The notes beneath the pieces are model-generated. The model saw nothing but the letters and a program-made list of their open reading frames with translations, made no database searches and had not been told where the DNA came from. 64,000 nt of DNA, taken from Antedon mediterranea. Lineage: Eukaryota > Animalia > Echinodermata. Position numbers and translations under genes: made by a program. The stretch covers positions 14,455,045-14,519,044 of the forward strand of contig NC_092680.1 of NCBI RefSeq assembly GCF_964355755.1, written 5' to 3'. Shown here piece by piece: positions 17,601 to 62,300 of this stretch (positions within the stretch are counted from its first letter, which is position 1; every line of letters starts with the position of its first letter).

Positions 17601-20468
17601 CCAACAACCAACCAACCAACCAACGATACTAACCAACCAACAATGCTAACCAACGAACCAACCACAAAATGAACGAACGACGAACCAACAACACACACAC
17701 ACACACTCAAGCAAACAAATAAATAAACTGAACTAAACACCTTATATTTTGTCTTACCATTCTTATATGAACTCCCAGTATGGTGGAAAGAAACGTAGGC
17801 ATTTCAATTACAAGAAAGTTGAAACCTAAAACTGAAGTGAATTTTCCAATTGCAATGGCCCAAACCGGCTTTGATGATAATATATCATACAGTGGAATTG
17901 ATCCTTGTGTCTGAAAATAAAACCAATATGAATTTTGTTTTTAAGTATAGGTCTACATTTTGTCTTTATGATAATACTGTGATATGTAATACTAATGCTG
18001 ATAACAGCTAATTAAAACATCTCATTATTCTGAAATGGGTTAGGGTTATTTCCTGTGAGAGGAATGGAATATTTACCTTATCTTTACTCGGCATATTAGT
18101 TTTTAATGTAATTTCATCTTTCTCTGGTGACTCTGTTACCCAGATTATCCAAATAATTGCTAGAATAGGACCAAGCATACCTTTAGATTAAAAACGTAAT
18201 AAATTAGAACAAAGACGAAGCTATTATTTCATACTTTTTTATGTTTTCCATCAGTTAACGCTTCGATTTTGTCTGGAAATTCTTAGCTCAGGATTATACG
18301 TATGAAACTCTATGTGTGCCAAAATCTTTTTACAAATATTGAGCTCTGTGTAGCCAACGCTATCAAACTAGTTTGAAAAAAAAGTGTTATGTTCTCAAGT
18401 CGTGTAGTAGCGATAAAATTATGCCGTCACATTTTTTTCACAGAAAGTTTGATAGTGTAGACAGAGTTTAGTTGGAATACTATAACCAGTATAATATGTA
18501 CAGATGACACAAATGGAGAACAAAATGAAAAAGAGGATGACATACTATATATATAAAAAGACATTGGCCATCCTCCTATCTTGTAAGAAGAGCAGATCAA
18601 TCCAGACATATAATTTGCAACTATGCCCCCAATTGGCATGCCTTTGAAAAAAATGAACAAGAATAAAATGAATAATAGAACTAATATTATATATATTAAC
18701 TAATATTATATATATTAACTAATATTATATATATTAACTAATGTTATATATATTAACTAATATTATATATATTAACTAATATTATATATATTAACTAATA
18801 TTATATATATTAACTAATATTATATATATTAACTAATGTTATATATATTAACTAATATTATATTAACTAATATTATATATATTAACTAATATTATATATA
18901 TTAACTAATATTATATAATATTAACTAATATTATATATATTAACTAATATTATATATATTAACTAATATTATATATATTAACTAATATTATATATATTAA
19001 CTAATATTATATATATTAACTAATATTATATATATTAACTTAAAAACAACATTAAAACATTATTATATATTGTATCAAAAGACATTTTAAACTGCTGTTT
19101 TTGGCATGTTAGAACATGGAGGAAAAGACTAACTATGTATGACTGATGATTATTCTTATACTTATCGGTAACAAATGCTTGTGAAAGATATAAATTCATT
19201 AATATTAAGCAAATTAATGAACTTACATACCGGCAAAAAATATTGATACCATTACACTTCGGTCATCAACACTAGACCATTTACTCAATAAAGTGTAGAC
19301 TGCAGGAATAACCATTCCCTATTTGCAAAAACATAGTATAACTATATTGTTTTCCACTGCATACATACATACTTTGATATTACATAGTTACGCACGAAGC
19401 AAGTTTTAATAATCCAGTAAGTATGCATCTTCCTTTAATAAACTACTTTGCGTGACAATTTGAAATCATGATTGGTTTGTAGACGCACGTGCAGTCGTTT
19501 CGTGGAAAGTGTCCCTAAGTAATACGTCATGATCGCTTCATACACACTCAATTATTACACACTGAATTCATTTTATTCCACATTTTCTGTCTTTCACGTT
19601 GGAATGAATGGAATTAATTTTTTTTACAGCAGTTTTACTATACGACGCGATATAAACGTAAATAGTGATTAGTAGTATTTTGATTTAACGTAAAACGCGG
19701 GGAAAACACGACGTAGGCCTAAAACCTATGCAATGCCATTTAACAACTTTCACAAACCTGTACAATTCCATCCAAAATCCGTAGCGTTATAAGGAGACCA
19801 ACATGTATCCCGGCTGTCCATGGGGATAAAGCTGCTATCACACTTGTCGAAATTATCACAAACGTTACTACATTTTTTCCTCCTATTTTAGCAGCTAAAA
19901 CTCCTCCTGGTATTTGGACGGCCACAAATCCATAATAAAAAGCTCCGAGTAACGTTTGTTGTGACATTTCATCCCAATCATAAGCGGGAATCTGTAATTG
20001 TAGAACACCATTGTATTAACTACTAACCGAAGTAACCCTAACGTTATAAAAACAATCCATCACTAACGCCATGAGGCGATGGCATTCATGCAATTAATTG
20101 CAGTTAAGATATTCCTTTGTTTTATGTTTGTTTGTGTGTCTGTCCGTCGTCAATTATTCTCCGAAAGTTTAAAATGGAGATCATTAATGATTTAAAACGT
20201 AAAGAAAGTTAAAGAGAATTGACATAACAAACACACGGTTACGTAAGTGGTTAAATTGATGTTACTTTGATACATTAAATACAATACTTACTTTATTATT
20301 ACGTTGATTTCTACTTGAAACAAAGTTGGATTGATTGTAAGACTGATGTGTAGATGTAGAATGATTTCTTTGAATCATTTCTACGATAGCGATGTTTATA
20401 TTCCATCTTGTACAACAGGATAAAATATTTACAAAACAACATGCCACTGCTAAAAAATACTGTTTCAT
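14616..20468 (-). CDS. SLC17 family (sialin-like) MFS anion transporter, ~463 aa. Exons 20468-20292, 19991-19758, 19318-19231, 18641-18546, 18180-18077, 17910-17758, 17448-17316, 15122-14881, 14780-14616
   Basis: Motifs TRWNINIAIVEM, YDWD...LLGAFYYG...QIPGG, LRILDG, GGWP..FY, S.PVWAI, TRK, NPMDI..EYVG, EQW..F. Exon lengths sum to 1392 nt in one open frame with GT-AG junctions. A probable 5' UTR exon lies near 22400. Confidence 0.92.
15160..15987. mobile_element. Mutator-like MITE with 9-bp TSD, nested in an older TA-type MITE (about 15145-16370)
   Basis: atttattcg|ggat...gccgccgacaagttgagccgcc ... ggcggctcaacttgtcggcggc...atcc|atttattcg. Confidence 0.85.
16449..17258. mobile_element. Helentron/HINE-like non-autonomous element with (GACA/GACC)n microsatellite
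   Basis: Microsatellite blocks at 16497-16530 and 17130-17225 and a terminal stem-loop agtcgcgt-cc-acgcgact followed by an A-run. Confidence 0.65.
18679..19039. repeat. 19-bp AT-rich minisatellite (ACTAATATTATATATATTA)n, ~19 copies, in an SLC17 intron
   Basis: Directly visible tandem array. Confidence 0.97.
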
Positions 20469-32200: not shown

Positions 32201-33335
32201 CCTTTAGATATAGTATTGCAATAACAATAATGTTAATACGTATTAATAATTTTGGTCGCCATTTGAATGGCAACTTTACTGTTAGATAATATAAACACAT
32301 ATACAAATAAACTTTATTACTTTGAGTGAGGATACTGTTATAAATATAAACAAATAATATACAAATAAATGTTATTACCCACAGTTGCTTCTCAAAGTTT
32401 GTATAAGTAATTAAAAAAAATTATAAACGCCGTAGTGATGTATCGTTACATGTACTTTTTACTATTTCAATCGTCTATGACAGTGACAGTTTGAACAAAG
32501 AATTAAATCGCAAATGTTTTACTGTATTTAGTGGTATTATTTATAGGCCTATAAAACACGAACAAAATATTTCGTTACTGAGTGGATAAAGAATATATTA
32601 AAAAATTGTTCCTCTTTGTACCGTACCCATCCTTTCCCTCATCTCTCAACCCTAATGTTACATACAAAACACAAATTGGGTTTGTTTATCAATTAGTCGA
32701 ATTTACAAAATACTAAAAATGTCAGCCGTAGATAGGCCTAATAAGCTTTCCGCTTGATATAGCTTCTGAATATAATTATAGTCCTCTGGGGATATAGCTG
32801 GCTAAAGGCGCGGCGCGAAAAGACACGTGTTCATTTAATTTAAATTCAAAGAATTTCAATACATTATTTTTCCGTGTGTTGGACATACAGTCCTCAGTCC
32901 GATCGTGACTTCACTTTGTGTTGATTCGCGTCAAGTCAACCAATCAAAAGACGAGAATAAAAAATCGTTCAACCATGAGCCCTCATATAGACTCTCTTTT
33001 CCCAGACGTTTTTTGGGTGCAGCAGCTTGGATCTATCAATTAGTCGAGTATACAAAATTCCGAAAATGTCAGCCGTAGATAAAAAGCTTTCAGCTTGATA
33101 TAGCTTCTATTCTGAATAAGTAGTCTTCTGGGAATATATCTGGATCATGGTTGCCTAAAGCCGGCCGCGGCGCGAAAATGTGGACTCATTTTGTGACAAA
33201 TTTCTCAGGGTGCTGTGTCTATTCGTTTCTGCGATACGTACATTAATTAAAGTCGCCAGTTTTGTTACTCTGAAATTACTGTGTATTCGAGAACCATCTG
33301 CGAGCGAAGCGAGCGTACCAACCACACACCATCTA
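29233..33335 (+). mobile_element. Non-autonomous Helitron-like element split by the LINE at 29680-32085
   Basis: Starts A|TCTATATATAAATTTACGTAAGGGC and ends CCATCTAG|T. Both halves align with the uninterrupted copy at about 61770-63048. Confidence 0.8.
29680..32085 (-). mobile_element. Decayed Rex1/L2-type LINE inserted in a Helitron-like element
   Basis: 'KASGPD', 'INAKKTKEMTFDFRR'; minus-strand 3' tail aataaattgaatcttgaatct at about 29680-29700. Confidence 0.85.
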
Positions 33336-33533
33336 GTAAATGCAAATATTGTGAACCTTTGTAAATATGTAATTAAATAAATAATATTATATACTGCCCT
33401 CAAACTAAATTAGTACAAGTGAGTTGAAAGGAGCACCATCTCTCGCTCGTCGTTGGTCAATTTCATTATGCGTATTTTATATTGTGAGAGAATTGCGTCC
33501 TCTCGGGTGTTGTCTTTCTACACTAGGAACAGT

Positions 33534-33644
33534 ATGGCGGACGAACAGATTATTACCGAAAAGGCACATTTAGCCGAGCAGCCTATAGTAGAAGTTATTA
33601 CCGATAAGGTGGAATCTGTACCGAATTCAATAGGCTTAGTAGAA
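33534..33644 (+). CDS. First coding exon of the DBD/PTS gene ([37 protein letters not shown])
   Basis: AGTATGG Kozak-like start in a CpG-richer island; 37 codons ending at a strong GAA|gtgagt donor. Confidence 0.72.
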
Positions 33645-36600
33645 GTGAGTTATGATATTATACACGACAATACACGACATGGAACACGATAAAATAAAAA
33701 AAAATTAAAATGGTTAGCTTTCACACAGGAGACCCCTCTGCTGTGACTGTGTGGTGGTTTGGCTAGAGGGCCAGGCCTCTAGCTAGCTAGGCTACTAGTA
33801 CTAGGTAGGCCTGAGGCTAGTAGGTGTGGACCAAGCTAGGCTAGGCTAAGAGGCCTAAGGCCTAGCCTATGGACTGGAACATCCTCTCAGTCTCACCTGT
33901 ATCCCAATGTCTCTTAGATTAGGCCCCTAGGTTACTTTAGTAATTGATTAGCCGGTTTGTTTACATACAGTGGTAGTGTGGTAGCAAGGAAGCCGCTCAC
34001 TCCGGCCGCCGTATCAGTTTAGCGCGATGTTATGCACTCCGGCCGCTATTTAATTCGACTTCCTGTGCAAAGGGGCCGTTTTAGTATGGAGCGCCCATAT
34101 CTACGTTTTCTATACTGTTCAGTGTTATAACAAATTCTTGGTGACCAAAAGAATTAAAAGAAAAAAGAATTTAAATGGAACTAGCCTAGCCTAGTTGAAT
34201 ATTTATTAGCAACAATTTTACTTTTTTCATTAACATTCAAAAAAGTTGGAACTGCTTTTTCTTTCAAACTTAACTTAACTTTTTCCTTTCAAATAATCAA
34301 ACACACGTCTAATTAATGCTTGAATAACAATATTTAATTTCTTTCTATGTACATTTTATAGCTTTACATTAACATTAAAAATTAGTTAAAAACCTTATTT
34401 TTATCTTGCCAGTACCCATACTTACTAATTATAGTTAATAACAATATGTAAAATATTAATAAATTTATTTCAAATAATCAAATATCCGTCTAATTAATGT
34501 TTATTTTGATTCTCTACAAAAAACGTGTCTCGGTTGTATGTACTGTAAAAGACTCATTGGGCGCTCCATAGCTGTGGCCGGAATGAATCGCGGCCGGATT
34601 GAAGCGCGGCCGGATTTAAGCGCGACCGGAGTGATCTGTATTCGGTAGCAATATGTTTTTGACAGTGGGACATCCTCTCATCTGTATGCAAATGATTGTT
34701 ACTTAATTGTGGTGTAATAGTAGGTGAGAACAATAACATGTTTGACAGGAGACAAATGTAATTTAAGTAAGATGTAAGATTTAATGTAAGACTTTGTTGA
34801 CAAAAGCAAAAGTCGTATGAACGGCTTATGAGTGGAGTTTTCCGTTAATATAGAGGTTCCCGTTTCTAAACACTGGTCGTTTCCCTTCTCCGTATGCTTT
34901 TGCCATTATTTCTCTGAGATTACGTTTCTTTTTAAGGTCAGTTTTTGGTAAGTCCTCTAGTACGAAGATCCCCTATTTTTCAACACATGACCTGTTTTGG
35001 CTTGCATCAGTACTTGGTAGCGCTGCGGTCGAAACAGAAATTTAGCGATAATATGTCTAGGTGTTCCGGTCGGTGAAGTACGGGGTTTGTCTGTACGGTG
35101 GGCATTTTTTACTGTAATGTTCGGTAGTTTTAGATCGTTCTTTATAATTTCATTGATTTTCTCAATTGGAATTTCATCTGTATTTTCTTTAGTTCCACCG
35201 AATCTCAAATTAAAACTTCTAGAGTATCTCTCAAGTTTGAGGATTTGATTTTGAAGTAATGTGACGTTGTTCCGGTCGGCGTCCATTGATGTCTTAACCG
35301 CTTCAATGTCCGTACAAAATGATACAATTTTCTTTTCTATCTCTACGATTGAATCACTAGTAAATGCGATCGATTTTTCTAGTTACGTTTGTTTATGTTC
35401 GATCTTGTCAATTCGACTTCCCATTTTGCCTCTGCAATGGGATTGGTAGCTATTTCATTACTTATTTCAACATTTCTGTTATGCCTAAAGACATTTTATA
35501 TTTATTTATGGATAGGTGAACATTTTACAGTCTACAGAATTATATATTATGTAAAATGTTCGGGTAGCTTCCATGCATGCGGCTTTTGGCCTTAATGGAA
35601 GTCTCCCTGGTCCTTTTGTATATTTTTTGCTTTGTATTTTTTTCCTTTATGGATCAAATAAACTGATTTGTGACTTGTGTGACTTAAGACACTTAATTTT
35701 TAACCCTGACTGAAGAGACAAGTTGTCAGAGGCTTTGATTCAGTACTGTATCTCAAGTAGTAGACAAATTGATCTATTGCGTACTTCAACCGACAACTTC
35801 AGCAGAACCCAATATTTTTGTAGGTACAGTACTCTGTTACTAGGCTACAGCAATATTAATTTCTTGGTTTCTCTTCCAGATTGATCCTCATACAGCTGTA
35901 GTGGTCGCTGATCCAGCAAGCCTGAACAATGTTGCAAGTCAGGTATGACTTTACTTCAGTTGTAAAATGATATTAAAGTTCCTCCTCCATCCTGGAGTCA
36001 GATATCATCATTTGTTGTGAGGCTCAAGTTTTTTTCTTGACCCAACAAGTTGCATGCTTGCTTTTTCACCAATCCTTATTATCAAACAAAAATTTGTTTA
36101 AAGCTTAAAAATTCTGGAAATTAGCATTAACTAAAATTAGTCTTAACCACCAAAGCTACAATTAAACCATGCAACTGATGAATGATTATGATGATGTAAT
36201 TTCAATCATGCATAGAGTAGAATGCCTGGCCAAACACTTTCATGTATAATGGTAGCAAGTTCAAAATACATTATGTCATTTCAATTTTTCGACAAACCAG
36301 AACTACATTACTTACTCGCCTAAAGAGCTCATTACTGCAAATTGTATTTTACTAGATGGTTCTTGAATACACTAGTAATTTCAGTGTTAAAAAACTGACG
36401 AGTAAATTAGCACCCCGAGAATTACTTCCGAAAGAGAAACTTGTCACAAAATAAGTTCAAATTTTTGAGTAAAATTTAAACAAACATTAGGGATAAGGAA
36501 GAGGATGTTTGCAAAATAAATATATTCTTTTATCCACACAATATACATATAAAAATAAACACAGTAAACATTTGTGATTTAATAATAATCTGTCATAGTC

Positions 36601-39600
36601 GATAGTAAAGTACAACGATACACCTCTACAATGTTTATATTTTTTGTAATTATTAATTAATACAAATGTTGAGAAGTTGAGTCAGTCAAAGTTTATTTGT
36701 ATACCCACACTCACAGTAAGAAATTTGCGCTTCAAATTGTATTTACAGTCAAAATTTGTTATACACTACTTATACAGTAGAACCTATGTTTTACGTACCC
36801 TGATTTTGCATTCCCTGGATTTTACGTATGCTTAAAATGACAGATGACGTCATCATTTTCTTACATTGAGGGCGCAATTTAACAACAACAAAGCACAAAG
36901 GCATGGCTGTGAGTAAGGAACTCTGCTGTGTGAGACAGCTACACGCATGCATTCCCCTTACAGCAGCGACTGTTTTTATTGATATAAAATACAAGAACAT
37001 TGATATTTTAATTTACACTTTATTTAAAAATTGCACAGCCTGTATATACTGTAGTTAGTTGCCTAGATTAGTCTAGGCAAGGCCTAGCTAGTAACCACCT
37101 GGATGCTGTACAGCCTTTTTAGCTACGATCTACGTATTTGGGGGTCAATTTAAAGTCAATTTTTACATACGCCTGGTAAAGGAATACATGACATGATGGT
37201 AACGGAATTACGCGTCTGATTATTGATTCGAATAGAACATCAAATAATAATTTTAATATTATGTTTTTTAGTGTTCTCATGGAACTTTAACAATGATTGA
37301 TGCCCATTTAAATTAAACCAGATTTTATAAAATCATCACATGAATTGGTTGAATCTACCTACTATAATAATAAAAAAAAATGCGCCTATCTGTGGTTTAC
37401 AGAGCTTAGTCAATATATGTATGATCTGTCCACTGTATTATTTAAGTCATTTACACTATAAACAAAATGTTCCAAATTTAAACATTTTAACAAATTGAAT
37501 TGTGAAGTTTAATTTTCATTGTCATATTCAAGAGCCTAGCCAAAATTTCTCTAATATTATCACTATTAAACTTTAACTGGCTTTTGTATACACTGTACAG
37601 TACTACAGCCATCATCAAACTACCGTGATCATTATTAAATATAAGTTTATTCACTACTGATTCAGATAGATCCTTAAAGTGGTGCCCGTAAAGGGAATGA
37701 ATTTTAATGATTTTAGCATAGATTGGAAATATAGTATCTACCATATACTGTACTGTGACTCTATACTAATTAAAATTACTATAGATTTGTTTTGGAATTG
37801 GATTCATTATTTATTAATTAATTGTTGATTAACTTCATTTAGAAACCATTTATACAGTACTAAAACATATGTATATAATAATTAAGGTTTATTACTTTAT
37901 ACATAACCCAATGTAATTCTGTTACCATGTAATAATACCATTAATTTATACCAAAATTTAATTATGTTACCCAGACTTTCTAAAAAGTTGTTGACTATTT
38001 TTTAGGGAAATCTTGAAAACATTTTTTTTAGATATTGTCCTCCAAAATTGGTCTTTTTGTGCTCGTTTTTTCCAAAAAGGTCCTGTCTTTTATTATGATT
38101 CGTAACTTTTGAACTTTTGCATTGCATAGAATGTATGTATTTTAGTAAGATTATTTATATTGACAGTCGGTATTTCTGAAATACAACATAAAATATTGTT
38201 AAAAAATGTTTCAACAAGATCTTTCCAGACATATAATTTTTATTCACATGGGTACTGTACATAAGAAATAATATATTTTTAACTTTAAACTTTTTCAAAT
38301 TTCATGATTCGTACCTTTTATTTTTGTTCTGTACCATCTAGTCTATATATAAATTTATGTAAGGACAAAATTCGTGGAATACTGGTATTAGTGACCATTC
38401 TATCATCATTCGTCATCGTAGCCCTGTTACCTGCTAAAACTGCAACATGTACTGTATGCCCATAAAGCTAAATTGTGCAAAAAAACTGTCTACTAAGATG
38501 AAGGCAAAGCAAATGAAGCCGAAGATGCTAAATTTGAACTAGATTTAATGGCTAAATTGTAAAATTGATAACAAGGAAGTCACTATAGATGGTTATAATA
38601 TATGAATGTAGATTAGATAGATCAAACTGTAGATCAGATGTTGGTGTTTTATTTTATATTAAATCGGGAATCGTATTTAAAGAATTAAGTACCTTAATAA
38701 AGAGAAGATGATGTTGAAGCACTCTAGATAAATTAACCCACTCCAGTAAACCTATGCTTCTTGATACGATATACAGACCACCAAGTACCACATCTGAATA
38801 TTTATGTAAATTAGGTACCATGTTTCAAAATTGTACTATGCTTTAGGAATCTATGAGCACTTACTGTAGATAAGGCAAAGATCGTTGTTTATTGACAGTT
38901 CAGCTTTCAATACTATTCCACCAAGTGTACTACTGTATTGAGGAAGCTGATAAACAATGAATGTAAATCCTTATTTTATTTTCAAAACACACTTTATGAA
39001 CAATTTAAGACCAATTTTAAGTGTGTAGGACATAAAGGTCAGAGCTCAATATTTAGAAAAATGACCTTTCCTGCCATTTTTTGACAACATTTTTATTAGA
39101 GAAAATAGAAATATATGTTGTATACAATTTAAGACCAAATAGAAGCCTCTACAGTTGTCATGTATAATATAATCAAGTCTTCTTTAGTCTGTATACATCT
39201 ATGACCTACGCTGCTCTCTTACAAATTCCTAAAAATACAAAAATCGCAGATTACTCATTCTTGTGATTTAAACTGTATTCTTTGATTTCAGTTTTCCAAC
39301 AGACAGTGCAGTCTATTAATTTAAAGACAGTTTACCTATGTTTTTTACATCTAATTTAAGGGCACAAACTAGTATATTTTATGCAAAAATAAATAATATA
39401 TTGACCAACTGTTACGATAATTTTTTCCATCTCGAGTGGTTACAAATATGTGAAAAAAAAAGATTCTAATAATTTAAAAGAGAAAATTCAACTCGAGCTA
39501 CATAGGTAGTGTATTGTTTTTCTCTTGTTATCATAATTAACCTTAGAACATACATTTAAGGCAAGGAATGACCTGGTTTAATGTTATACTGTATATGCAT

Positions 39601-42600
39601 TATTTTTACAAAATGTCCACAATTTCAGGTAAATATTTGACTGAATGAATTTGTGCCATGCTGGATAATGGTTTTCTTATGATACAATGTACAGTATGCA
39701 GTTGCCTACATTACCACTTCATTTCTAAAATCAAAACTACTCAGCTTGACACAATACATACATGTTCAGACTGTGCTTTGTACATTAAAAAAAAGAAGAG
39801 TTTTTCACCATATTCAAAATGTACCTACCGCCACATTTTAATTTAGGCACTGGGTTTAAATCCTATTGATATAGTATACAAATAATGTTTATGAGTGTAA
39901 TGGTACAAATAATGGCACGAGGTGAATGATGAAAGGTTATATTTCAACTCGGCTCATCGCCTCGTTGAAATATAACCTTTCATCATTCACCTCGTGCCAT
40001 TATTTGTACCATTACACGAATACAAAACTTTCATTATTTGTTTTATATAACATCTAAATAAATTCTAGTTATTTGAATCAAATAAAAGGTAGCCCTAGCC
40101 AAAGTTTACTACATTTCATTCACACACATTGATTAAAAACAGTAACATTTCGTTTTAAATAATTTTATATTAAATGTTATATTTATATGGATTTTGTAAA
40201 CACACCTACTTTTGTGTTAATTATGTCAACAAACGACCAAACAATCCTAGGCCTAGCAAGGCTAAAACGCCTAGGCTAGGCCTAGCCTAATACTAGCATG
40301 GCCTAGGCTAGACCTAGTAGCCTAGTACTAGCTTGGCTGAAAGGCAAAACTTCGACAGACAATTGGAACTTATCTAAGCTAATTATGGTTTTTCCAACAA
40401 TTCCACGTCCTGTAGGGATGTCCCCATTAATTAATCAAAATCCTAAAAACGATCTAAAGCTAATTTAAATGCCTTTTTGAATGAAATTAGTACATAATGT
40501 CCAAATCGTACACAAATATCTGCTGCTGTTGCATATCTCGCGGTGGTGTTTACAAATGAAACTCAGACCAGACGACAGGTGGCGCTGTTGTATTTCACAG
40601 TACATAGTCATATCATAGGATAATTTTTGTACTAGATTTTTTTTCATCCGCGAGACGTTTTTTTTTTCGTACACAAAAATGTTTCAAAAAGTACTATTTA
40701 ACGATCGTTGAATAGTGCGTACTATTGCACGCCATGTGACCTACATTCGTCCAATCAAATGACAGGAATTTATTTAGGTGTTATATAATATAATCTTTTG
40801 TGAAGTGATAGTACCATCTTTTTAATTAGGAAGCTGGTCTCAAACAAAATGAGATAATTATCATTTTTTGAGGAATATTGTATTTTCGGGATTACAGTTT
40901 GTTTATTTGTTGTTTTAATTATTTATGTTGATAGGGAAATTCTGTTGTTCAGTCGCCAAAGCCACGAGAATTTCATTCACTATCGTTCAAGATGAAGGTG
41001 ATCGAGAAAGCCAAACAAGTTGGTAACTGTGCAGCGGGAAGAGAATTTAAAGTTCCGGAGTCGTCCATACGTAAATGGCGGAAACGACATTCCCTTGCAG
41101 GTGCCATATCCACCTTGACTACTCCTGGGTCGACACGATACGCCATGCGGCATCCAGACATCGAAGATGACTTGGTGACTTGGATACGCAATCTAGATGC
41201 CCAAGGCATTTCGGTAAAGTATTCCGATATTCGGGATAAAGCTATGGAATTTGCTCGAGAACGAAACATCCCGGAGCACATGTTCAAAGCACGCTCATCG
41301 TGGGTACAGCGATTTCTTCAACGCCATAACCTAAGTACTGCAAGACAAATTGCTCGTAGACAAAAACGTGAAACTGAGCAGCAATTATTTCAAAATGCAG
41401 AAGAAGTAAGCAATTAATATGATAGCAATAATAATAAGATAATTTGAAATTAAAATTATTTGTAATTTACACGTTGTCCATTTTATTATGTTAGACTGAC
41501 CATGGAGCTATAAAATTAGCTCTAATTTCATAGCTCCATGGACTGACATGCTCCTAGTACTGGTTGCTGGAACAAGTCTTCTCGGATAAGCAATATAATC
41601 CGTAGGACACAGTTCATCATTTGAAATGAGTAGGAGGTTATCCCGGTGAACTAGTTCACAAAATAGCCCCTGTAAAAGGGGGATAATACCACCTATCTGA
41701 TAAGACAGTGATTCATTTACTATTGGTAATCCTTTGTTACATGTGCCAAAGACATAAAATAAAAATACATAATAAATTTAAATACATATAAAATTTGATT
41801 TGAGTGAGATATTAATGATTTGGACTTGTTACCTTCTGTTATAAAGGTGAGCATTTTTAAACCAAACCATACATTCTATAATTGGCTAACATTTTACAGT
41901 AAATTTGTTTTATTCCATCAATTGTTTAAAAATGACCTTGTATTGTTATTTTTTATCACTTTGCTTTATAGTTTTATTTTGTGGATGGTGTAATAACATT
42001 AAATTTGATGATTTCATTTTTTGGAAATATGATGGTACCCGTACCCACTTGTTAATATTGAGTGCATAGAGAATTACAATAAGATAGGCCACACATAGAC
42101 AAGCTGACAGGATCTTGGTTTATACGTTGTTAATCTTGTGTTTTGACACTTGTTTGCTATTCTTCTTCTTCTTTTTAGATTGTATTATCAGCAGCAATGG
42201 CAGCCCAGATAAGCTTAGAAGATCTTCAAACGATTAGTTCACCAGTTGCATATGTTAGACGTATAGAGAAATTTTCTGCATCTCACAGACTTCACAGGTA
42301 CATAGAAATTTCTTAATTTATTGTGTTAACATAGGCTCATTCATTTATTCAATAACACATTCTTTACACATAATAATTAAATAAGCAAGTTCGATAATGA
42401 GTTCAAACATAGTACTGTACATTGATAAATTGGTACAATTGGTAATATAATTGGATCACATTGAGATGCAAAATATGAAAAACAATAAATCGAAACAGTT
42501 GGAAAAGCTTTTGAAAAACTACAAATGGCATTGTTTAATAAAGCTTTGTCATGCGATACTTTTTCTGAAATTACCTAAAATTTTGCAGTTAAGGTAAAGT

Positions 42601-45600
42601 TATCTATGGACAAGGAGGTCAGAGGTTACTTATAGAGGTTTATATAGTGTACATTAAAAAATGTCTCTTGCAAAGTCCATAAAGTTCAATTGTTTTACAA
42701 TATGTGGAATTGATAGATGAATTGATTGGTCATGTAATGAAGGAATAAGTTGTTTTCTTCATTTTTTTCCTAGTATTTATTTTACGCATGAAGAAAATAA
42801 ACAAGTTTATGGAAAGTGTAACAATCCAAATGGACATGGACATAATTATACAGGTACAAGAAACATTCTTATTATAATTAATTTTACAACAACCCAGTAA
42901 GCCTTTCAAAAATAGAAAAACGTGGTGTGGCACAAAAGCATTAGAGGATTTAATCAACATTTAGCAAACCAGTATATAACTAGATTTAATTCGTCACTAT
43001 GACGAATTATAGGTTATATGCATTGATTTAAATAAAGATATATTGACTGATTGATTTTCTCAAAATCTTTAATTATTTATAATATATTATAGGATCTTGC
43101 TAACACAAATACAATAGCCGGTATCACAATCCGATCAAAGATCCCTCTGCGTATAGTGTCATAAACCACCCTTGTTACATAATTATAAAGACATAAGTTT
43201 CTTTTTATCTATATTTCATTATAAATCTATACAAAAACTACAAACCAAAATCTGATAAAATTAAATCAAATGATGACCTACCCCAAAACGACTGAATGAT
43301 TTCTTCAGTCGTTTTGACACTTACCCTCTCCATCAAGACAATAATTATGAAAATGGTAATGATGTACTGTTAGTTGTTCTTGAAGAGAATACTTGTAATG
43401 AGTTTAGTAGATGTAAGTCAAATAAGTCAGCTGGTCCAGACGGTATATCCCCTATGCTTGTTAAACATTGTTGCAAACAGATTGCCCATATTTTTACATA
43501 CATTTTCAATTTCTCTCTTATATCTCAAATTATTCCGCGATGTTTTAAAGATTCTATAATAATTCCAATTCCGAAACGTTCCCCACTCGAAACCCTGAAT
43601 GATTATCGACCTATAACATTAACGTCTGTTCTGATGAAATGCTTTGAACATATAGTCCTTAATTACTTGAAGGCCAAGTGTCCTCGAGATCTTGACCATT
43701 ATCAGTTCGCCTATAGACCAAACCGGTCTACCGAAGATGCAGTATCGATCACTTTGCATAGGATCTTAGAGCATCTCGAACGTGATAAGAGATATGCTAG
43801 ATTTTATATATAGATTTTAGTTCAGCATTTAATACGTTTGTACCGTATAAGTTACACACTAAGATGGTTGAAATCGGTTTCGATATTTCTATACGTAACT
43901 GGGTGTTAAACTTTTTAACTGATCGACCCCAACGTACTAAAGTGGGTACCATTATATCGGCTAGCGTATTATAAATACAGGTGTACCACAGGGCTGTGTT
44001 CTGTCGCCCTTTCTTTTTACTTTATTTACCTATGACTGTGTTACCTACTACAGTAACTGTCATATCGCTAAATTCGCGGATGATACTACCATTGAAGGTC
44101 TAATCAATGATGACAGTGATGAGTCTAATTATCGCAACCAAGTTAAACGAGTTGTAGACTGGTGTAGCGAAAACAATCTGTTCTTGAATGTATCTAAGAC
44201 TAAAGAAATGGTTGTAGACTTCCGTAAATCACTTAATGTCAGATATCCAATATTTATTAATGGTATATCAGTTGAGTTTGTAGAAGAATTTAAGTTCTTG
44301 GGTATTTATATTTCAAATGATCTGAAGTGGCATATTAACACACGTAACATTATTAGAAAGGCCCAAAGAAGAATCTACTTCCTACGTAGACTTAAATCAT
44401 TTTGTATAAACTAATAAATAATGTCGTCGTTCTATAGGTCAGTTATAGAGAGTGTCATAACGTATTCTTTAACGGTATGGTTTGGTAGCACTACCGAAAA
44501 TGAAAATAGTCAAGACCGCATCGCATATAATTGGATCTGCACAATTTCCTTTGGAGAACATATTTTCGGATCGTCTTCTGAAAAAGGCAGTGGCTATCAA
44601 AGATGATCAATTTCATCCGGCCTCTAGTATGTTCCAGTTGATGCGCAGCGGTCGGCGATTTCGTTCTATTAAGGCCAATAAAGCACGATTTACAAATAGT
44701 TTCTTTCCAGGAGCTATTAGAGCCTTAAACATAATGTAGACACTTTTTGTAATGTTTTTGTTTTTGAGTTTGTGTTGTGTCCGTTTTCTTTAAAAAAATG
44801 ATAATAAATGATACTTGACTATACACTAAGAAATAAAATTGAACAAACAATATGGATAATAAAAAGAAAAATCATGTTTCGTTTGGTTTCCCAAGGTGAG
44901 ACTCGATCTCGGTACCTTGAATGCCATAGACACGAGCACAGACCACTGAGACATACACAACTGACTTAAAGTCATAGAAAGATTCCTCTGTGTATTTACT
45001 ACGCAATAACCACTTTGGTGCAGATAGATATTACATACATCAATGAATTATAATTTTTTACTATGGTGACATCTTTAAAAATTAAAAAAAAATGATGCAC
45101 TGTCAAACTATATACTTTTAACTTTAGTTTATGAACATTTTAAGGAAGAAAGTTAATGTTAACGTGATTTTTTTAAATTGCTAGATTAAATTGCTAGTTA
45201 AATTAATAGACCGCGTAATTTTTTATTGTGCGCCATAAAATCATAAACACATCGATTCCTGGCCATAAGGAATAAACTCTGAAAAATTTACTTAGCTAAA
45301 CTGATATTAAGATAATTGACGGACAAAATAGTGCTTAAGGAAAGAAAAAATAAATAAAGAAATAAATAAATAAAGATTCTGACAGAATCAAGATGTTATA
45401 TGCATGATAATGCATATAACCTAATAATGTACTGGTTAAAAGTATTGGCAGGGATGCGTACCTTGCCTTTTGAATTTGAACCAAAGCGTATTGTTTTGCA
45501 TTATAACATTTAACTGCCAAACACAAAGATCTTCGTGTTTGGAAACACAACGCTTGACTGCCAAACACGAAGATCTTTGTGTTTCGCGTTTTTTTTACTA

Positions 45601-48295
45601 TAAATATGGACACTATATTCGGTCTGGACCGTCAATATTTTACTATTTGAAGATAACTAATCTGGTTACGAACGACTGTCAAAATAGTACCTGTCGAAAT
45701 AACAAAAACCGCGCATCACAGTAGCTTGGCGCATTGTGTATCGGTCTCGCACTAGCTATGCCGCCGAAGCATTACGAAGGTTTTTGTGGATTGACATGTT
45801 TGTTTGTTATCTGAATAAAAAAATAATGGAGTCATTTTCAATATGAAGTCTTTAATTTTATTATTGTATGTATACCCTAATTGTTTTGGTGTTTCACTGT
45901 AAGTATTAATCGAGTTTCATGCAACAAACTTGTTTAGAAATGGTATGGATATTATCATCAGTTTACTAGGCTAGTAGTACTGGGCTAGCCTAGGCGTAAA
46001 ACGGTTCCGGACCAACCTTAGGCCTCGTTAACTAGGCCTGGGGTCTTTACTATGTGGATTTTGGCGAAACATTATGATTTAAAAAATGTAATACATTTTT
46101 CGATAGTGATAACTTGTTTTTATAGGCCTTATCGGTGCCGTGTAAGTAACTCTTTCGTTGTTTGTTGATCTCACTGGGCGATATTTTCATATTGTGATGT
46201 CTTGCACAAAATCGCGAATATCTTGACTTTCTTGAACGAAACTACAAAAAACTCAGTGGGTTAAATTTATTTTACTATTACGATTTACATTACGATTTGA
46301 AAATCGTTTTTGGTAGCATTGTAAAGCTAAAATCTTTATGATTATTTTAGTCTAAATTACATATAAATCATATCACATACATAGTTTCAATCAGCTTTAA
46401 ATTGGGCTAAAAACCTCTGGCAGTAAAAGTGTTAAACTAGTATCGTATATTAGTACTGAAGGCTGCCATCTTTGTATGAAGCAGAAAATTGAATTTATTT
46501 ATAAATGTATGTGTTATTTGAAGCTCAAATTATGATTTGTACTGTAAGATTTGCATTTTGGAGGCGTTTCATCATTATAGGGCAGAAGGTTTTTTTAAAG
46601 GTTGTTAAGGCACAAAGTTTTTGTTTAAATACTGTGTGAATAAATTTACGACAGAAACGGGACCAGATTTCAGATACTAGCCTCAATTGTGATTAAAAAA
46701 TTATTCCCTATGACTCCACTTTTTCGACCTGCATTGAGGCTAAAGATGACGTTTCTTGATGAGTGATTTTCTTGTGGAAAAATGTTCAGCAGAAATGCTA
46801 TTAAAATGTGCTAAATACTAGCCTTTTTTCCATTATGCAAATTTATTTAGTGCAAAGCTAAAGCGTTGACTAATGCTTATGCATATTAATATTTTCGCAT
46901 ATTAATATTTTCATCTACTTTTTCTTTCCTCCTAACATCAGGAGAGTTGGGGCATCTGCAATGACACACTATCCACTTAGTATCACATTTAACATGATAT
47001 TTAAATTCCCACTCTCATCGCTTTCTGATTATGATGCCATTGACAAACTAATGTTATTTTTGTTTATATTTCAGTTGAAGTTATTTTAAGAGGCAAGGTA
47101 AGATAGTTATGTTTTGTAATAATTATATGTTTATAATATCAGGGGCGTAGGCTTGAAAGACACCCCCTCCCACAAAAAGGCAAAAAGATCTCTATGGGCC
47201 TCTATGCCTGACATTTTCAAAGTATAAGTGCAATTTATAAAGACCTGCAGCTCTAGTTTCTCAGCTAAGCCCCAACCATAGATCTGTTCATACTTTTATA
47301 TTACGATTCATATTTCGAAGTACAAGTTCATTCCCTGGGGACCTAACACCTCTATTTTTCAAAATTTTCTTAGCTTAGCTCCAACCATGGTTAGATGGTT
47401 CTGGAGCCTTTCCGGGGACCTAGCAGCTTCATTTCTTAAAATTTTATTACAGATCAGCCCTGAAGGATTAGGGAGGGGTTAGTGTTAATCCCGCATTTAA
47501 CATTTTTCGCATCCCCTAGACAGCAACAAGCCTATGCCTCTGAATATGTTGATAGTAGTTATGTTTTACTCTATGGCAATATTGCCATATTATGTTTAAC
47601 CTAAGCATGTATATGGTTAACCTGATCATGTGTACAGTATATTTAACCTTAAGATGTTTTGTTTAACCTAACGATGTTTATGTTCAACCTAAACATTTTT
47701 ATGTTCAACCTAAATATGTTTGTTTAACCTAAACATGTTTATCCTAACCATGTTTATGTTCAACCTAAATATGTTTTGTTTAACCTAAACATGTTTATCC
47801 TAACCATGTTTATGTTCAACCTAAATATGTTTTGTTTAACCTAAACATGTTTCTTGTTACCTAAAGGTGGATCCTAAGACTGGAATGGTAATAAACATAA
47901 ACGATTTAAAGAATGTAATGCAGGTAGGTAAAGCAGTTTATTTATCAATATTAATTCAAGTGTTCTGTGTATTTTTGACAAAACCACTTCTTTTTCATAT
48001 TGGTAAAATGCTTGCTATTTTCTTTTTATTTAAAATGTTGTCTGAAAAGCAAAAGCACAAAAAATTGTCTCTCATCATCTTACAGAAAGCCATCATGGAG
48101 CCTCTAGATCACCGAAACCTAGATGTGGAAGTGGACTTTTTCAAAACTCGTGTTAGCACATCGGAAAATGTAAGCATCTTTATCTGGAACCAGATGCTGG
48201 CGCATCTACCACATCCAGAACTACTGTATGAGGTTAAGTTACACGAAACTGACAAGAATGTTGTGTCGTACAAAGGAGAAATAAGTGAAAGTTAG
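33534..48295 (+). CDS. PTS: Predicted 377-aa fusion protein: acidic N-terminal leader + pogo/CENP-B-type DNA-binding domains + full 6-pyruvoyl-tetrahydropterin synthase. Exons 33534-33644, 35880-35942, 40935-41405, 42179-42297, 42774-42853, 47075-47097, 47867-47923, 48086-48295
   Basis: All junctions are GT..AG and frame-compatible (phases 0,0,0,2,1,0,0). The PTS part reads [64 protein letters not shown]...PLDHRNLD...STSEN...[17 protein letters not shown] identity is very secure; linkage to the three upstream exons is predicted. Confidence 0.8.
33985..34645. mobile_element. MITE with ccggccgc repeat TIRs
   Basis: tatggagcgccca (34085) versus tgggcgctccata (34557), flanked by inverted tccggccgc repeats. 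Confidence 0.6.
34810..35580 (-). mobile_element. LINE ORF1 (L1/Tnp22-like coiled-coil + RRM) fragment with no adjoining ORF2, in intron 1 of the PTS fusion gene
   Basis: '[15 protein letters not shown]...AHR...PRHIIAKF'; similar to the ORF1 remnant at 2050-2290. Confidence 0.8.
35880..35942 (+). CDS. Second coding exon of the DBD/PTS gene ([21 protein letters not shown])
   Basis: Polypyrimidine acceptor tttctcttccag, 63 nt open, donor CAG|gtatga; phase 0-0. Confidence 0.7.
38500..38860 (+). mobile_element. Highly decayed CR1 APE-domain fragment
   Basis: Manual translation gives [16 protein letters not shown]...IYRPP remnants with frameshifts. Confidence 0.55.
39880..40790. mobile_element. 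Non-coding element starting with a perfect 54-bp-arm hairpin
   Basis: Arms 39895-39948 and 39964-40017; second IR ttatataacatctaaataa (about 40042) versus ttatttaggtgttatataa (about 40770). Confidence 0.7.
40935..41405 (+). CDS. Pogo/Tigger transposase-derived DNA-binding exon (Brinker-like HTH + HTH_Tnp_Tc5/CENP-B), 157 codons, phase 0-0
   Basis: Open frame ...[36 protein letters not shown]...[22 protein letters not shown]...IRDKAME...[18 protein letters not shown]. Acceptor gttgatag|GGA and donor GAA|gtaagc. No DDE domain follows. Confidence 0.88.
41550..41765 (+). mobile_element. Deu-domain-like SINE remnant; a related antisense remnant lies at about 60600-60780
   Basis: cttctcggataag..taatccgtagg...gagtaggaggttatcccgg resembles the DeuSINE core as I recall it. 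Confidence 0.45.
42179..48295 (+). CDS. PTS: 6-pyruvoyl-tetrahydropterin synthase catalytic portion (5 exons; internal ATG at 42197 could start a stand-alone enzyme)
   Basis: Signature motifs [18 protein letters not shown] (catalytic Cys, Zn-binding His), LDH, STSEN and ETD..V.YKGE. Internal exon sizes of 80, 23 and 57 nt match the vertebrate PTS structure as I recall it. Confidence 0.96.
42978..45320 (-). mobile_element. Helitron-like remnant hosting the Rex1/L2 LINE
   Basis: Hairpin aattcgtca-cta-tgacgaatt next to CTAG at about 42980-43010; 45208-45300 resembles 16985-17090. Confidence 0.5.
43250..44820 (+). mobile_element. 5'-truncated Rex1/L2-type LINE in a PTS intron
   Basis: '[18 protein letters not shown]', '[13 protein letters not shown]', [19 protein letters not shown], '[11 protein letters not shown]', 'SGRRFR...FTNSFFP.AIR'. 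Confidence 0.93.
47595..47862. repeat. Minisatellite (aacctaaacatgttt core) abutting a PTS splice acceptor
   Basis: Directly visible; ~19-bp units with a higher-order repeat. Confidence 0.9.
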
Positions 48296-48413
48296 TCAGC
48301 TTTGTTTATTGTCAGATGTTTTGCTGAACTCGTACATGTTGTTCTCCAGTAGGCTTGAAGCCACTACTTTACTTTCAGATCACTAGCCTGGCATTCATAT
48401 CTCTTCCACCGAC

Positions 48414-48509
48414 AGCTAGGCTAATTTGTTTTAGTTAAGCTAGGCTAATTTGTTTTAGTTAAGCTAGGCTAATTTGTTTTAGTTAAGCTAGGCTAATTTG
48501 TTTTAGTTA
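48414..48509. repeat. 24-bp tandem repeat x4 (agctaggctaatttgttttagtta) just 3' of the PTS stop
   Basis: Directly visible. Confidence 0.95.
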
Positions 48510-49207
48510 TTTACTAGAAGCACTTATATTGTAAAGAAAAACAACATATCCGTGTTAAACAGAAAACCAGGTCTTAAGTTGACATTTAGCATTTGCTTTT
48601 TTCAATGCCACTACAAATATACAGTATGTCTATATTTAAATCAAGCAGATATTATTGTTTTTTTCCCAAATAATTAATTAGTCAAATCATGTTAAGTTAT
48701 CTTACCATAAATATTATATGAATCAACATTACTGAATTGGTAAAAGGGAACATATTATATCAAAATCTGATACTTCAGATATTAAATAGCAATTTTCGTG
48801 TTGGCAGAATTCAGTTGCTTAATGTACATAATATTGTACTGTATATGGACATAGGAGTACTAGTAATCATTTTATTAGTTTTGTTTGTACAGTAAACATG
48901 TACAAAATTCTACTTATCCTATTTATGCACAATTCATTCCAAATTATTAATTAATGTTAATACCAGTAAATGTTATGAAAAGGTTAAATTACTAAAATAT
49001 AATATGCATTTAGATGGCTACTCTAAAATGTCTATTGTTTATTGTAGAATACTGTATACTCAATTATAACCAAACACTCTATAAATGCTAATTGTTTGTT
49101 TTTTTAATGAACACTATCAGTTTGATGAAAGTGTGTGATGTGCCCAAAAATCATTGTGTCCATATAATGGGCACATTAAATTGTCACATAAAGTGTAGAG
49201 AGCTTAA

Positions 49208-59348: not shown

Positions 59349-62300
59349 ATGGCAATTGCGAAACTTAGTCTTTGGCTTATTTCTGCATTATCAAGTAAGT
59401 GCTTTATGGTTATTAGCGTCAATATTAATATCTTTTGCAAAAATTCCTTAATAAGGCTTTAAAAATATTCCATACCATAAATTGAATGTCTTCTAGCCTA
59501 TGTCTTCGTATTCATTCGAAGAACAAGGTATTGTATTTGGAGTTTCCATATTATCTTTATTATTTATATGTATTTTTAAATCATTGTAAATGTTTTTTTT
59601 TATAGGCATAATTTTTAAAAACATTACTAAATGCAATACGTTTAGCCCTTGGCTGTATTGTGTATATGTTATACCCTAATAAAAATTATGTTGATTATAA
59701 ATTGCTTCTTTTAAAAAATGGCATGCAATAATACAAATAATAAATCATAATGAATCAGTTAATTTATGACGTCATTGTGTTGTTTATTTTTAGGTACTAT
59801 TAAACAATTTTCTTTCGTCTGTTTACTTTTATTTGCTTAGTTACTACAATTAAAGCGCAGAACTGTACTTTTGATGATATGATTTATCCCCTCTGTGAAT
59901 GGACAGTAGAAGGTTGGAAGGTGAATCACACGCAATCAAAGGTACCAAATTCTAACGGCACAAATGCAATAGGTAAAAAACGCGTCCATATTATATTGAT
60001 CACACTTTATACCGGTACTTATTCCGTAAACGATTATCATGTTGTCAGATTTGTCAGGTTTACGCGCGCGTTTATTTACCGTAGTATATCATTATTTAAA
60101 CGCACGCAATAACGAACGCAATAAATAAATCAATCCTGTGTCTTTTTATTAATGTCGCTCTGTGAAATAAATTCAGCACTTATAAACTATTCTTATATTT
60201 CAAGTTTGTGTGTAATAATTTTACCAAATTCGGTTGAGAAGTATAAATATACCATTGTTCCTCAACATATTTACTGCATTTCTCATTAATCATGAGTTAG
60301 TTATAATCATAATATTAATTTATGAATTATCGATTCTACTATTGACATTTCTTATGCCTATTATTGTGTAATCACGGAGGTTGATTTTGATAAATTTTTA
60401 ATCCGATGGTCAAACTTATGGTCTATTATTAAATTTGAATTAATTTGTATTAATGTGTTCATTTTAATCCTTTGATGATTAAGTAACATTATTTATCTTA
60501 ATATACTATTTTAGTTTTTATTTTATGTCTTTAGGCGCACACATGTGGCCAAGAATTACCAATAGTAAACAATCACTGTCCTACCAGATAGGCCTAGATG
60601 GTAATCCCCTTGATATAGGAGCTATTTTGTGAACCTTTTCACTCCGGGGTAACCTCGTACTCGTCGTTTAGAATGATAAACTTGGTTCTTGAAGTGCACA
60701 CGGGTTATAATTGTGTACACTGGACCTACATTTTGTAGTCCAAAAAGTTTTCAATTTAGCGATTTCTTCCAAGGAACACTGTATCCATACTCTTTGAGCG
60801 AAGTGGATATCAAGAATGAAGTTCGGAATATCCGGGCTATTAAAAATATATATAGGCCTATTTAGGGCATAATTAGGCCTACTTAATTTTGGCTGTTTTT
60901 TTTTCAGTGGGAAACTTTATATATGTTGATTCAGGAAACAGTGCAACCACTACAAGCCCATTCTTAACCACTACTGCTGTTATTGTAAGTATTCAGGGTT
61001 GATAACACCCTGACATTAGGCTCTGTCTAACTATCACACCTTATATGACAACAAAATATGATGTACTCATATGGACTAGTATCACTACCATATTTGGGCA
61101 TATCACCCCCTTTTTTTTAACAAACTAGTCTGATAGTGTAAACAGAGCTTTAGACAAATAATAGCTGCAAATTGATTATTATATCTATTGTGTTAATATA
61201 CGTATTTCATAGGAAATTATTTAATAATTATGTTTTTGCCTCTAACCGGAAACCTTAGATTGTGTTAGCTAATTAATTGATTCCAGTTCCGGTAACTTAA
61301 TTCCCAATTAAACTCAGTATAGCCTTAATAATTTTATTAATAATCTATTTTCGGGTTATGATAAAATAAATTACATATGTTACATAATAATTTAAAATGA
61401 AAGAAAAAACGACCTCTCTTTACAAATAGAGTCCTACACGGCCTAAACGACTCGTTGTTAATTCTGGTTACAAAAATAACAGAAGTCCTCCGACGAAAGC
61501 AATTGGGAAACAATTTTGGCAAATTCTAGCCACGTGCTTGTTAAGCCACTCTACTATAAGCCTATAATGATAAAATACATTACTTTCATTTTGAAGGATT
61601 TTAAGTTGTGGTACTATATGCACGGTTCTCAGAATATAACTTTGAATGTTTACATACAAGATGCTGATAGCATGGAACTTGTATTCACCGTCACCGGGGA
61701 TAAGGGTAACAGATGGAATGAAGCATCGATAAGTGTTCAAAATCCATTGAATCGTCGTGTAAGTTTGCATATATATTGACGTAAGGGCATCATTTGGTAA
61801 ATCACGCGTAACTTCTGAAATGTTTACACGATGGTATATAAAGTTGGTACATACTGTCGATACTGATTTTTAACACAAAATGAAAACCATACAACTAATT
61901 AGGTTTAGTTAGATAATTAGTTATTGACTATTATAACGAATTTAGGTTCAATGATTTGCCCCAAATAGGGGTGTTTTCAGATCGTGGTATACACTGTCTA
62001 ATAGATGTCGATGCTGAAAAATACCCGCACACAAGAATACGAGGGTGCTTTGAATTTACCTATCTCCTTCTACGATAATTGTATTAAATAGCTGAAAACC
62101 GATTGAACAGCTCGAGTACAGTATCATAATGTTAAAGGCCGATTTTCTTTAAAACAATACTATTTTAATAGATTTAATATACGTTTATACAAAATGTTTT
62201 GATTTGCGATGAATGGAACATTCCAATCTCATTTCTCCCAGCATAATTATTTAGTTTACACAAGTAGGTAAATGTATGGGCCTTTGGGGGATAAACTTAA

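Follow-up and report, generated by a model that had tools for sequence, protein, structure and literature searches.

Can an enzyme of small-molecule metabolism also be a DNA-binding protein, by way of a head acquired from a transposase? The question is raised by a gene of the feather star Antedon mediterranea, at positions 33,534 to 48,295 of a 64,000-nucleotide stretch of DNA (the window, positions 14,455,045 to 14,519,044 of contig NC_092680.1 in assembly GCF_964355755.1). In this gene an exon coding for two helix-turn-helix (HTH) units of pogo-transposase type is joined in frame to 6-pyruvoyl-tetrahydropterin synthase (PTS), an enzyme of the tetrahydrobiopterin (BH4) pathway. A previous inspection of the letters, hereafter the sequence-only reading, had proposed this fusion and its domestication. 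The follow-up described here makes it practically certain that the fusion is a real, spliced gene, and we lean towards a bifunctional product, a PTS enzyme and DNA-binding hexamer in which a domesticated transposase head is carried on the main feather-star PTS.

Gene structure and splicing

The gene model is an eight-exon chain, with an open frame of 377 aa (42.9 kDa), no internal stop and GT..AG borders at all seven introns, which bears out the exon coordinates and splice sites of the sequence-only reading. The features, all on the forward strand, are:

33314..33533, +, 5' leader, covered by the spliced contig; its in-frame upstream ATG at 33468 is the RefSeq start
33534..33644, +, exon 1 coding part, with the start ATG; acidic N-terminus, predicted with low confidence and likely disordered; CpG-rich, promoter-like
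35880..35942, +, exon 2, 63 nt, phase 0/0; N-terminal segment, poorly conserved
40935..41405, +, exon 3, 471 nt, phase 0/0; BrkDBD and HTH_Tnp_Tc5, no DDE
about 40980-41090, +, BrkDBD within exon 3 (Pfam profile match)
about 41154-41339, +, HTH_Tnp_Tc5 within exon 3 (Pfam profile match)
41340-41405, +, 3' end of exon 3, first half of the linker helix (predicted structure)
42179..42297, +, exon 4, 119 nt; second half of the linker helix, then PTS strand 1 with the first zinc histidine
42197, +, internal ATG in exon 4, in strong context; likely the ancestral PTS start
42774..42853, +, exon 5, 80 nt; catalytic Cys and His-x-His zinc ligands
47075..47097, +, exon 6, 23 nt of PTS
47867..47923, +, exon 7, 57 nt of PTS
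48086..48295, +, exon 8 coding part; Asp-His dyad, Thr-Ser-Glu pterin-binding motif, last Glu and stop codon
48296..48443, +, 3' untranslated region (UTR) within the spliced contig; the transcript may end further downstream, the nearest polyA-like hexamers lying at 48781 and beyond

Exon 3 has the length, the phase 0 at both ends and the GAA|gtaagc donor attributed to it by the sequence-only reading, and the strong acceptor claimed for exon 4 is present as a pyrimidine-rich tract. At the local base composition, a 157-codon open frame is expected by chance with p of about 5e-6 per start. The RefSeq protein of Antedon begins 22 codons earlier, at ATG 33468 (399 aa), and is otherwise identical to the 377-aa model. 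These 22 residues are absent from the corresponding protein of another feather star, Anneissia japonica, and since that protein begins at the position corresponding to 33534, this start, which the earlier inspection had chosen, is favoured over the RefSeq one. Residue numbers below are those of the 399-aa record, from which 22 is subtracted to obtain those of the 377-aa model.

Five public sequencing runs from two studies cover the stretch, none of them recorded as RNA. One run (X1), taken to be RNA by guess, was read as contigs, from which rare isoforms can drop out, and two others (X2 and X5) are DNA-like. A single X1 contig of 1,506 nt, at depth 93, was placed on 33314-33644, 40933-41405 and 48083-48443, leaving gaps of 61 and 276 nt, which are the exact lengths needed for exon 2 and for exons 4-7. 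The joint between 41405 and 42179 is listed in X1 at depth 93, skipping 773 nucleotides between GT..AG borders with 117 letters on its short side; the joint 42297-42774 is also listed, again with GT..AG. For the junctions 35942-40935, 42853-47075 and 47097-47867, loose-end letters in X1 equal the adjoining exon, so that of the seven junctions two are listed joints, three come from loose-end letters and two from contig arithmetic. X1 has depth 0 across repeat-free intron bins; in X2 and X5 the introns are read through, and the joints 41405-42179 and 42297-42774 are both absent. Both junctions singled out for checking by the sequence-only reading are therefore seen in the presumed RNA, the one at the head of PTS as a joint absent from the DNA-like runs, and the one between exons 2 and 3 through loose-end letters that equal the end of exon 2. 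In X1, the fused contig is the sole one placed over exon 4. A retrocopy as origin of the spliced contig is unsupported, X2 and X5 being devoid of such joints (X1 comes from another sample).

The transposase-type head

Exon 3 matches the Pfam families HTH_Tnp_Tc5 (E 6.3e-19) and BrkDBD (E 7.6e-6), both passing the Pfam cut-offs, and its module aligns with the DNA-binding domain of CENP-B (1hlv, E 2.5e-5). Exons 1 and 2 have no Pfam match and the last exon matches PTPS, so that the three families anticipated for the 377-aa model are all found. In the available passages of the relevant study, Passer-family pogo transposases, and POGK with them, are described as having BrkDBD and HTH_Tnp_Tc5 as their DNA-binding pair (PMC7386202). 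The pogo-type identity assigned to the exon by the sequence-only reading consequently stands; within it, following the same passages, the pair points to Passer/POGK in preference to Tigger/TIGD. From its domain content, the head is likely to have been domesticated from a Passer-type pogo transposase. The HTH region carries 30 Lys and Arg against 15 Asp and Glu, and the motif positions common to other BrkDBD-Tc5 modules are kept; the head would probably bind DNA. The basic patches that had been put forward as possible nuclear localisation signals are present; RKWRKRH need not be one, because it falls within the closing helix of the first HTH, and each of the aligned modules has a similar motif.

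Remains of a transposon around exon 3 were sought in several ways. No DDE domain was found in either crinoid protein by Pfam scan, the intron after exon 3 contains no plus-strand open frame longer than 61 codons, and within 39500-42200 the exon is not bordered by any convincing inverted repeat, the pairs spanning it being 16-18 nt long, 81-88% complementary and mostly AT. The lack of DDE domain and terminal inverted repeats (TIRs) noted earlier is thereby upheld. At a likeness of 96%, exon 3 has single-copy depth in X2 (14.9 versus 13.7) and in X5 (32.7, versus 15-17 where intron alleles split), and no other copy exists within the window, in agreement with the single-copy state that the domestication proposal called for. 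The gene, with no DDE_1 and no TIRs, is not an active Passer element; with one spliced frame, the two parts on separate exons, conservation in two species and a single copy lacking TIRs, it agrees in these respects with a host-transposase fusion gene, its putative donor family being assigned from the domain pair.

The closest relatives recovered for the head, at about 33% identity, are themselves DDE-less. They comprise an oyster protein and two smaller ones of similar BrkDBD-Tc5 design (P0342 and P0387). The oyster protein (P0241 in our set, Magallana gigas, UniRef A0A8W8HXK3) is 2,283 aa long, with eight full and one partial BrkDBD-Tc5 modules and no DDE match. In the Atlas, the neighbours are short BrkDBD/Tc5 clusters of 109-132 aa (score 0.91-0.92), which serve as a lead only, and a scan of metagenome contigs with exon 3 gave 155 pattern matches and no confirmed relative. 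Because the closest relatives recovered have no DDE, exon 3 may either have been captured directly from a transposon or have come from a DDE-less HTH gene that had been domesticated beforehand.

The CpG content of exon 3 (observed/expected ratio 1.15) was considered as a possible internal promoter, which is unsupported: 15 of the 28 CpGs are positions 1-2 of Arg codons, and silent-site CpGs are depleted in exon 3 (4 against 15) as in the PTS exons (2 against 19), compared with 4 against 1 in exon 1, all of these being small counts. The 15 CpG-containing Arg codons have been kept despite the depletion at silent sites.

The PTS half

The fusion protein contains the PTPS domain (PF01242), and its PTS half aligns with rat PTS (1b66, E 9e-48) as well as with human and worm PTS. 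The exon sizes of 80, 23 and 57 nt presumably match those of human PTS exons 2-4. Residues H273, C292, H298, H300, D338, H339, T355 and E357 are invariant across 74 sequences including both crinoids, and E384 is near-invariant. The intact zinc and catalytic residues claimed from the letters are thus all retained, in the rat alignment and in that of the 74 sequences. Part of their roles can be read from rat PTS, for which T105-T106-E107 and a three-His zinc site are described in the available text of PMC7546909. With such residues kept, the PTS half is very likely catalytically active.

In the PTS tree, the stem branch leading to the crinoid pair measures 0.71, against tips of 0.05 and 0.16; other single-species branches are equally long (0.6-1.3). 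Crinoid PTS is 50-62% identical to that of other echinoderms, which are 59-84% identical among themselves. The crinoids stand apart from the other echinoderms, and 17 of 34 inner branches are open; as resolution is limited to close pairs, the tree is uninformative on orthology.

Distribution and conservation of the fusion

A search of longer proteins with exon 3 gave two matches among 188 candidates, both combining HTH and PTPS: XP_071965177.1 of Antedon mediterranea (399 aa, 100% identity to exon 3) and XP_033107551.1 of Anneissia japonica (351 aa, 87%). Both records are titled 'uncharacterized protein' and each is alone in its own cluster. Antedon (Antedonidae) and Anneissia (Comatulidae) belong to different families of Comatulida, so the architecture is present in a relative of another family, as the domestication reading required. 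These families probably separated in the Mesozoic; the literature passages available gave no date for the split. Among the PTS proteins of 219-699 aa, an HTH family occurs in two of the best 120 of 600 matches, both being the crinoid fusions. Of 391 proteins collected, five match the HTH module and two of these five also have PTS, and in a search of 50% representatives the sole protein spanning both halves is that of Anneissia (best 150 of 5,139). Seventeen further long PTS proteins carry, according to Pfam, FolB, WD40, FHA, a second PTPS or nothing else, and never an HTH. Several of these database fusions (P0329, P0361, P0309 and P0289) are candidates of their own, in which PTPS is combined with FolB (in one case in the euglenid Entosiphon), with WD40 or with FHA.

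Plain PTS of 144-167 aa occurs in Amphiura, Asterias, Patiria, Acanthaster and Diadema, and the non-echinoderm PTS are also plain, among the best 120 of 880 short matches. No crinoid-named short PTS appears among these 120, the best identity being 70%; a short isoform of the fusion gene would have scored 89-100%. Since crinoids are described in the available passages of PMC7351957 as the earliest-diverging living echinoderm class, and non-echinoderm PTS is plain as well, the fusion is most simply a crinoid gain.

Between Antedon and Anneissia, identity is 22/40 in the N-terminus, 43/46 in BrkDBD, 9/12 in the inter-HTH linker, 70/75 in Tc5, 6/10 in the short linker, 22/24 in the junction helix and 123/139 in the PTS core. 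In these two species the HTH blocks (together 113/121) are more conserved than the enzyme core, and the linkers are 55-75% identical. The predicted helix across the junction of exons 3 and 4 (41340-41405 and 42179-42235) is 22/24 identical between the families in its second part, although the N-termini of other echinoderm PTS are highly variable. The three X1 differences listed in the coding exons of the 377-aa model are all synonymous. Judged from this pattern of substitutions, there is little doubt that both halves are under selection, and the domestication proposed by the sequence-only reading is supported.

Predicted structure and proposed mechanism

The model of the protein, made with the alignment of 74 sequences, has a predicted local distance difference test score (pLDDT) above 95 in the PTS core and of 75-91 in the second HTH. 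It superposes on rat PTS (1gtq) with a template modelling (TM) score of 0.98 and a root-mean-square deviation of 0.8 A. A single helix of about 38 residues (216-253) is predicted to span the junction of exons 3 and 4, and is followed by a strand at 260-273. Prediction of a trimer from three copies of residues 85-399 gave a score of 0.83, versus 0.00 for the best of three controls; the runs agree in at least 39% of contacts and pLDDT is at least 71. Of solved homo-pairs, 21 of 30 attain the score mark, compared with 0 of 23 single chains (17 of 29 and 0 of 30 for eukaryotes). Confident contacts are confined to the PTS core, and for this reason the pass may be a memory of solved PTS; what the model shows is a resemblance to solved PTS that is compatible with the N-terminal extension, not binding.

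Solved PTS consists of two trimers placed head to head, with the zinc sites between subunits, as described in the available text of PMC7546909. Strand 1 carries the first zinc histidine at its far end, and its start, to which the helix is attached, would consequently face the outer pole. Two trimers meeting head to head at the active sites would then place three two-part HTH heads at each outer pole, on arms of 38 residues. The result would be a six-headed, two-ended, high-avidity DNA binder, able to loop or bridge sites and still an enzyme, whose core would at the same time give a transcription or chromatin factor its scaffold for oligomerisation. We infer that these animals have the fusion as their main form of PTS, from which it would follow that the enzyme role is kept and that the protein is bifunctional.

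As for its history, the head was probably added by splicing at the 5' end of what had been the first PTS exon, at some time between the divergence of crinoids from other echinoderms and that of Antedonidae from Comatulidae; the DDE part would have been lost or never captured, and selection would then have fixed both halves. It can also be imagined, although we think it unlikely, that pterin occupancy is relayed through strand 1 and the long helix to the heads, so that flux through the BH4 pathway sets expression or DNA looping. A possible route is offered by Plasmodium PTS, for which a normal-mode simulation linked motions of the terminal regions to tunnel gating, according to the available text of PMC7546909, but this is a different enzyme and a simulation.

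Weighing of the alternatives

Several observations weigh against the bifunctional reading. The first HTH is poorly modelled, with pLDDT mostly of 41-68, and no HTH structure is among the Foldseek matches listed for the model. The polar location of the N-termini was inferred and not taken from coordinates. No close DDE-bearing transposase was recovered in the protein, Atlas and metagenome searches, so the donor is named from domain content. The conservation is that of two species, at amino-acid level. Splicing is known from one RNA-like run (X1), whose RNA status is a guess; it has some intron pieces at depth 2-7, and therefore includes a little unspliced material. A second, unfused PTS gene may exist, the evidence on short proteins being the best 120 of 880 matches. 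Finally, both species share the internal ATG at 42197, which stands in strong context, and a short PTS may therefore also be made.

The last point leads to the alternative that survives best, namely one locus with two products. A plain PTS of about 156 aa, made from the internal ATG through an internal start site or by linker cleavage, would do the metabolic work, and the long form would be a DNA-binding factor using PTS mainly to oligomerise or in mixed hexamers. The internal Met lies about where other echinoderm PTS begin, and young host-transposase fusions often retain the parental transcript, as reported in the available text of a tetrapod survey (bioRxiv 10.1101/2020.05.07.082677); in the same text, however, older fusions generally show the fused transcript alone. 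X1 has no alternative joint or loose end at 42179 (being contigs, it can lose rare forms, and for that reason a minor PTS-only RNA is possible), and no short isoform is found in either protein cluster (one member each) or among the best 120 of 880 short matches. Ten ATGs precede the internal one in the coding sequence, which argues against leaky scanning, and the depletion of silent-site CpGs in exon 3, similar to that of the PTS exons, argues against an internal CpG promoter, with the counts being small. The residues on both sides of the internal Met are 22/24 identical as well. We therefore regard two products as a minority prospect, to be kept in mind beside the bifunctional single form.

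The head might instead read no specific DNA sequence and be kept for targeting or interaction of an ordinary PTS, through nuclear import, non-specific tethering to chromatin or RNA, or partner binding. Its strong basic charge and basic patches would suit such a role, conservation does not by itself tell what is bound, and the poor model of the first HTH leaves room for it. But both HTH units with their spacing are 93% identical, above the enzyme core, which is more constraint than an import signal needs, and the motif positions common to other BrkDBD-Tc5 modules are kept, so that we hold this explanation to be improbable.

It is more improbable still that the PTS half is now pterin-binding or purely structural, with little catalysis, and that BH4 is made by an unseen paralogue. 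The long crinoid stem branch and the low identity to other echinoderm PTS could be read in this way; every invariant catalytic column is kept, however, other single-species branches in the tree are as long, and no paralogue is among the matches listed (best 120 of 600 long, best 120 of 880 short). An artefact, in which read-through or a mis-annotated junction joins a transposon remnant to PTS with no selected function, is scarcely credible and already largely refuted: it could appeal to the single RNA-like run and to the fact that RefSeq models can fuse neighbours, but the sole X1 contig over exon 4 is fused, the same fusion with a 22/24-identical junction region occurs in a second family, and the gene is single copy with synonymous variation.

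Genomic surroundings

Ahead of exon 3, a high-copy, inverted-repeat-rich insertion of about 0.9 kb (39869-40782) stops 150 bp short of the acceptor; X1, X2 and X5 have contigs that run directly from 39868 to 40783 and point to another haplotype without it. The strong inverted repeats ahead of exon 3 were weighed as possible TIRs and rejected, since both of their arms are upstream, inside this insertion. Intron 1 contains a 141-codon open frame on the minus strand (34960-35382) with a weak L1 ORF1-like match (Transposase_22, E 0.009), of which divergent copies are present in all four runs aligned. In PTS intron 5, a broken reverse transcriptase of long interspersed nuclear element (LINE) type lies on the same strand as the gene (43277-44411, +), in two frames with RVT_1 matches. 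Short tandem arrays occur at 47587-47865, just before exon 7, and at 48415-48510, at the end of the covered 3' UTR. Two neighbours can serve as synteny markers: major-facilitator transporter exons upstream (17092-20015, -, MFS_1 match), which we take to be SLC17-like, and a MAM-domain gene downstream (59804-61776, +).

Comparison with known systems

At least 94 host-transposase fusions with 55 host domains have been reported in tetrapods, and the partners named in the available text of that survey are chromatin or transcription effectors such as KRAB, SET and SCAN (bioRxiv 10.1101/2020.05.07.082677). The terms 'enzym' and 'pterin' are absent from its main text as available, and the full list of 55 domains, given in a figure or supplements, may include enzymes. 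Similarly to KRABINER and other KRAB-transposase fusions, SETMAR and PGBD3-CSB, as far as the sources available describe them, the crinoid gene has a separate exon for the transposase DNA-binding domain, which splicing joins in frame to a host domain, with the DNA-binding part kept and the fused transcript seemingly dominant. It differs from them in having as partner an enzyme of small-molecule biosynthesis that is an obligate oligomer, in the N-terminal position of the head and in its crinoid lineage. The BrkDBD and HTH_Tnp_Tc5 pair is shared with POGK and Passer transposases; unlike POGK, which in the available passages keeps DDE_1 and gained KRAB, the crinoid gene has no DDE and gained PTS, and orthology to POGK is not claimed (PMC7386202).

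The terms 'PTPS' and 'pterin' are likewise absent from the main texts of PMC12062965, in the part available, and PMC10799480. No description of a crinoid HTH-PTS fusion was found in the literature by listings and abstracts, subscription journals being mostly outside the search, and no relevant work on nuclear PTS or pterin trigger enzymes was found by abstract; the novelty suggested by the sequence-only reading has thus met no published account, and both database records are uncharacterized. Documented transposase capture has mostly equipped chromatin effectors with DNA-binding heads. In the crinoid gene the head has gone to a housekeeping enzyme that normally has a single domain, and in two families the constraint on it is no weaker than that on the enzyme. 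The distinctive point is that, in an animal, an oligomeric enzyme of a core pathway carries the head while fully intact, and apparently as its main form. The gene is also a candidate crinoid-specific molecular novelty, datable with existing sea-lily and feather-star transcriptomes, and its 43-kDa product offers a compact, expressible test case of how animal metabolic enzymes gain direct DNA binding, serving in addition the question of a regulatory role for nuclear pterin synthesis or sensing.

With animal PTS (rat 1b66 and 1gtq, human 3i2b, Caenorhabditis elegans 2g64) the crinoid protein shares the fold, the catalytic residues and the predicted trimer contacts, and it differs by about 220 extra N-terminal residues that comprise the two HTH units and the long helix. 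With the DDE-less BrkDBD-Tc5 proteins (oyster A0A8W8HXK3, P0342/P0387 and the Atlas clusters) it shares the use of the module without a catalytic domain; unlike the fusion, these are about 33% identical to its head and have no PTS, and they may be independent domestications or transposon debris.

In design, the proposed hexamer resembles ArgR/AhrC, in which a hexameric small-molecule core of D3 symmetry carries six outward DNA-binding heads (ArgR), and in the trigger enzymes PutA and BirA enzyme and DNA-binding domain also share one chain; no homology to any of these is claimed. PCBD1/DCoH is a BH4-pathway enzyme with a transcription role and without a DNA-binding domain of its own. To our knowledge, none of these systems uses a transposase head. 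If the two halves of the crinoid protein are uncoupled, it is still an unusual domesticated fusion, of narrower interest; if they are coupled, a metabolite-coupled transcription factor similar to ArgR would have been reached independently in an animal.

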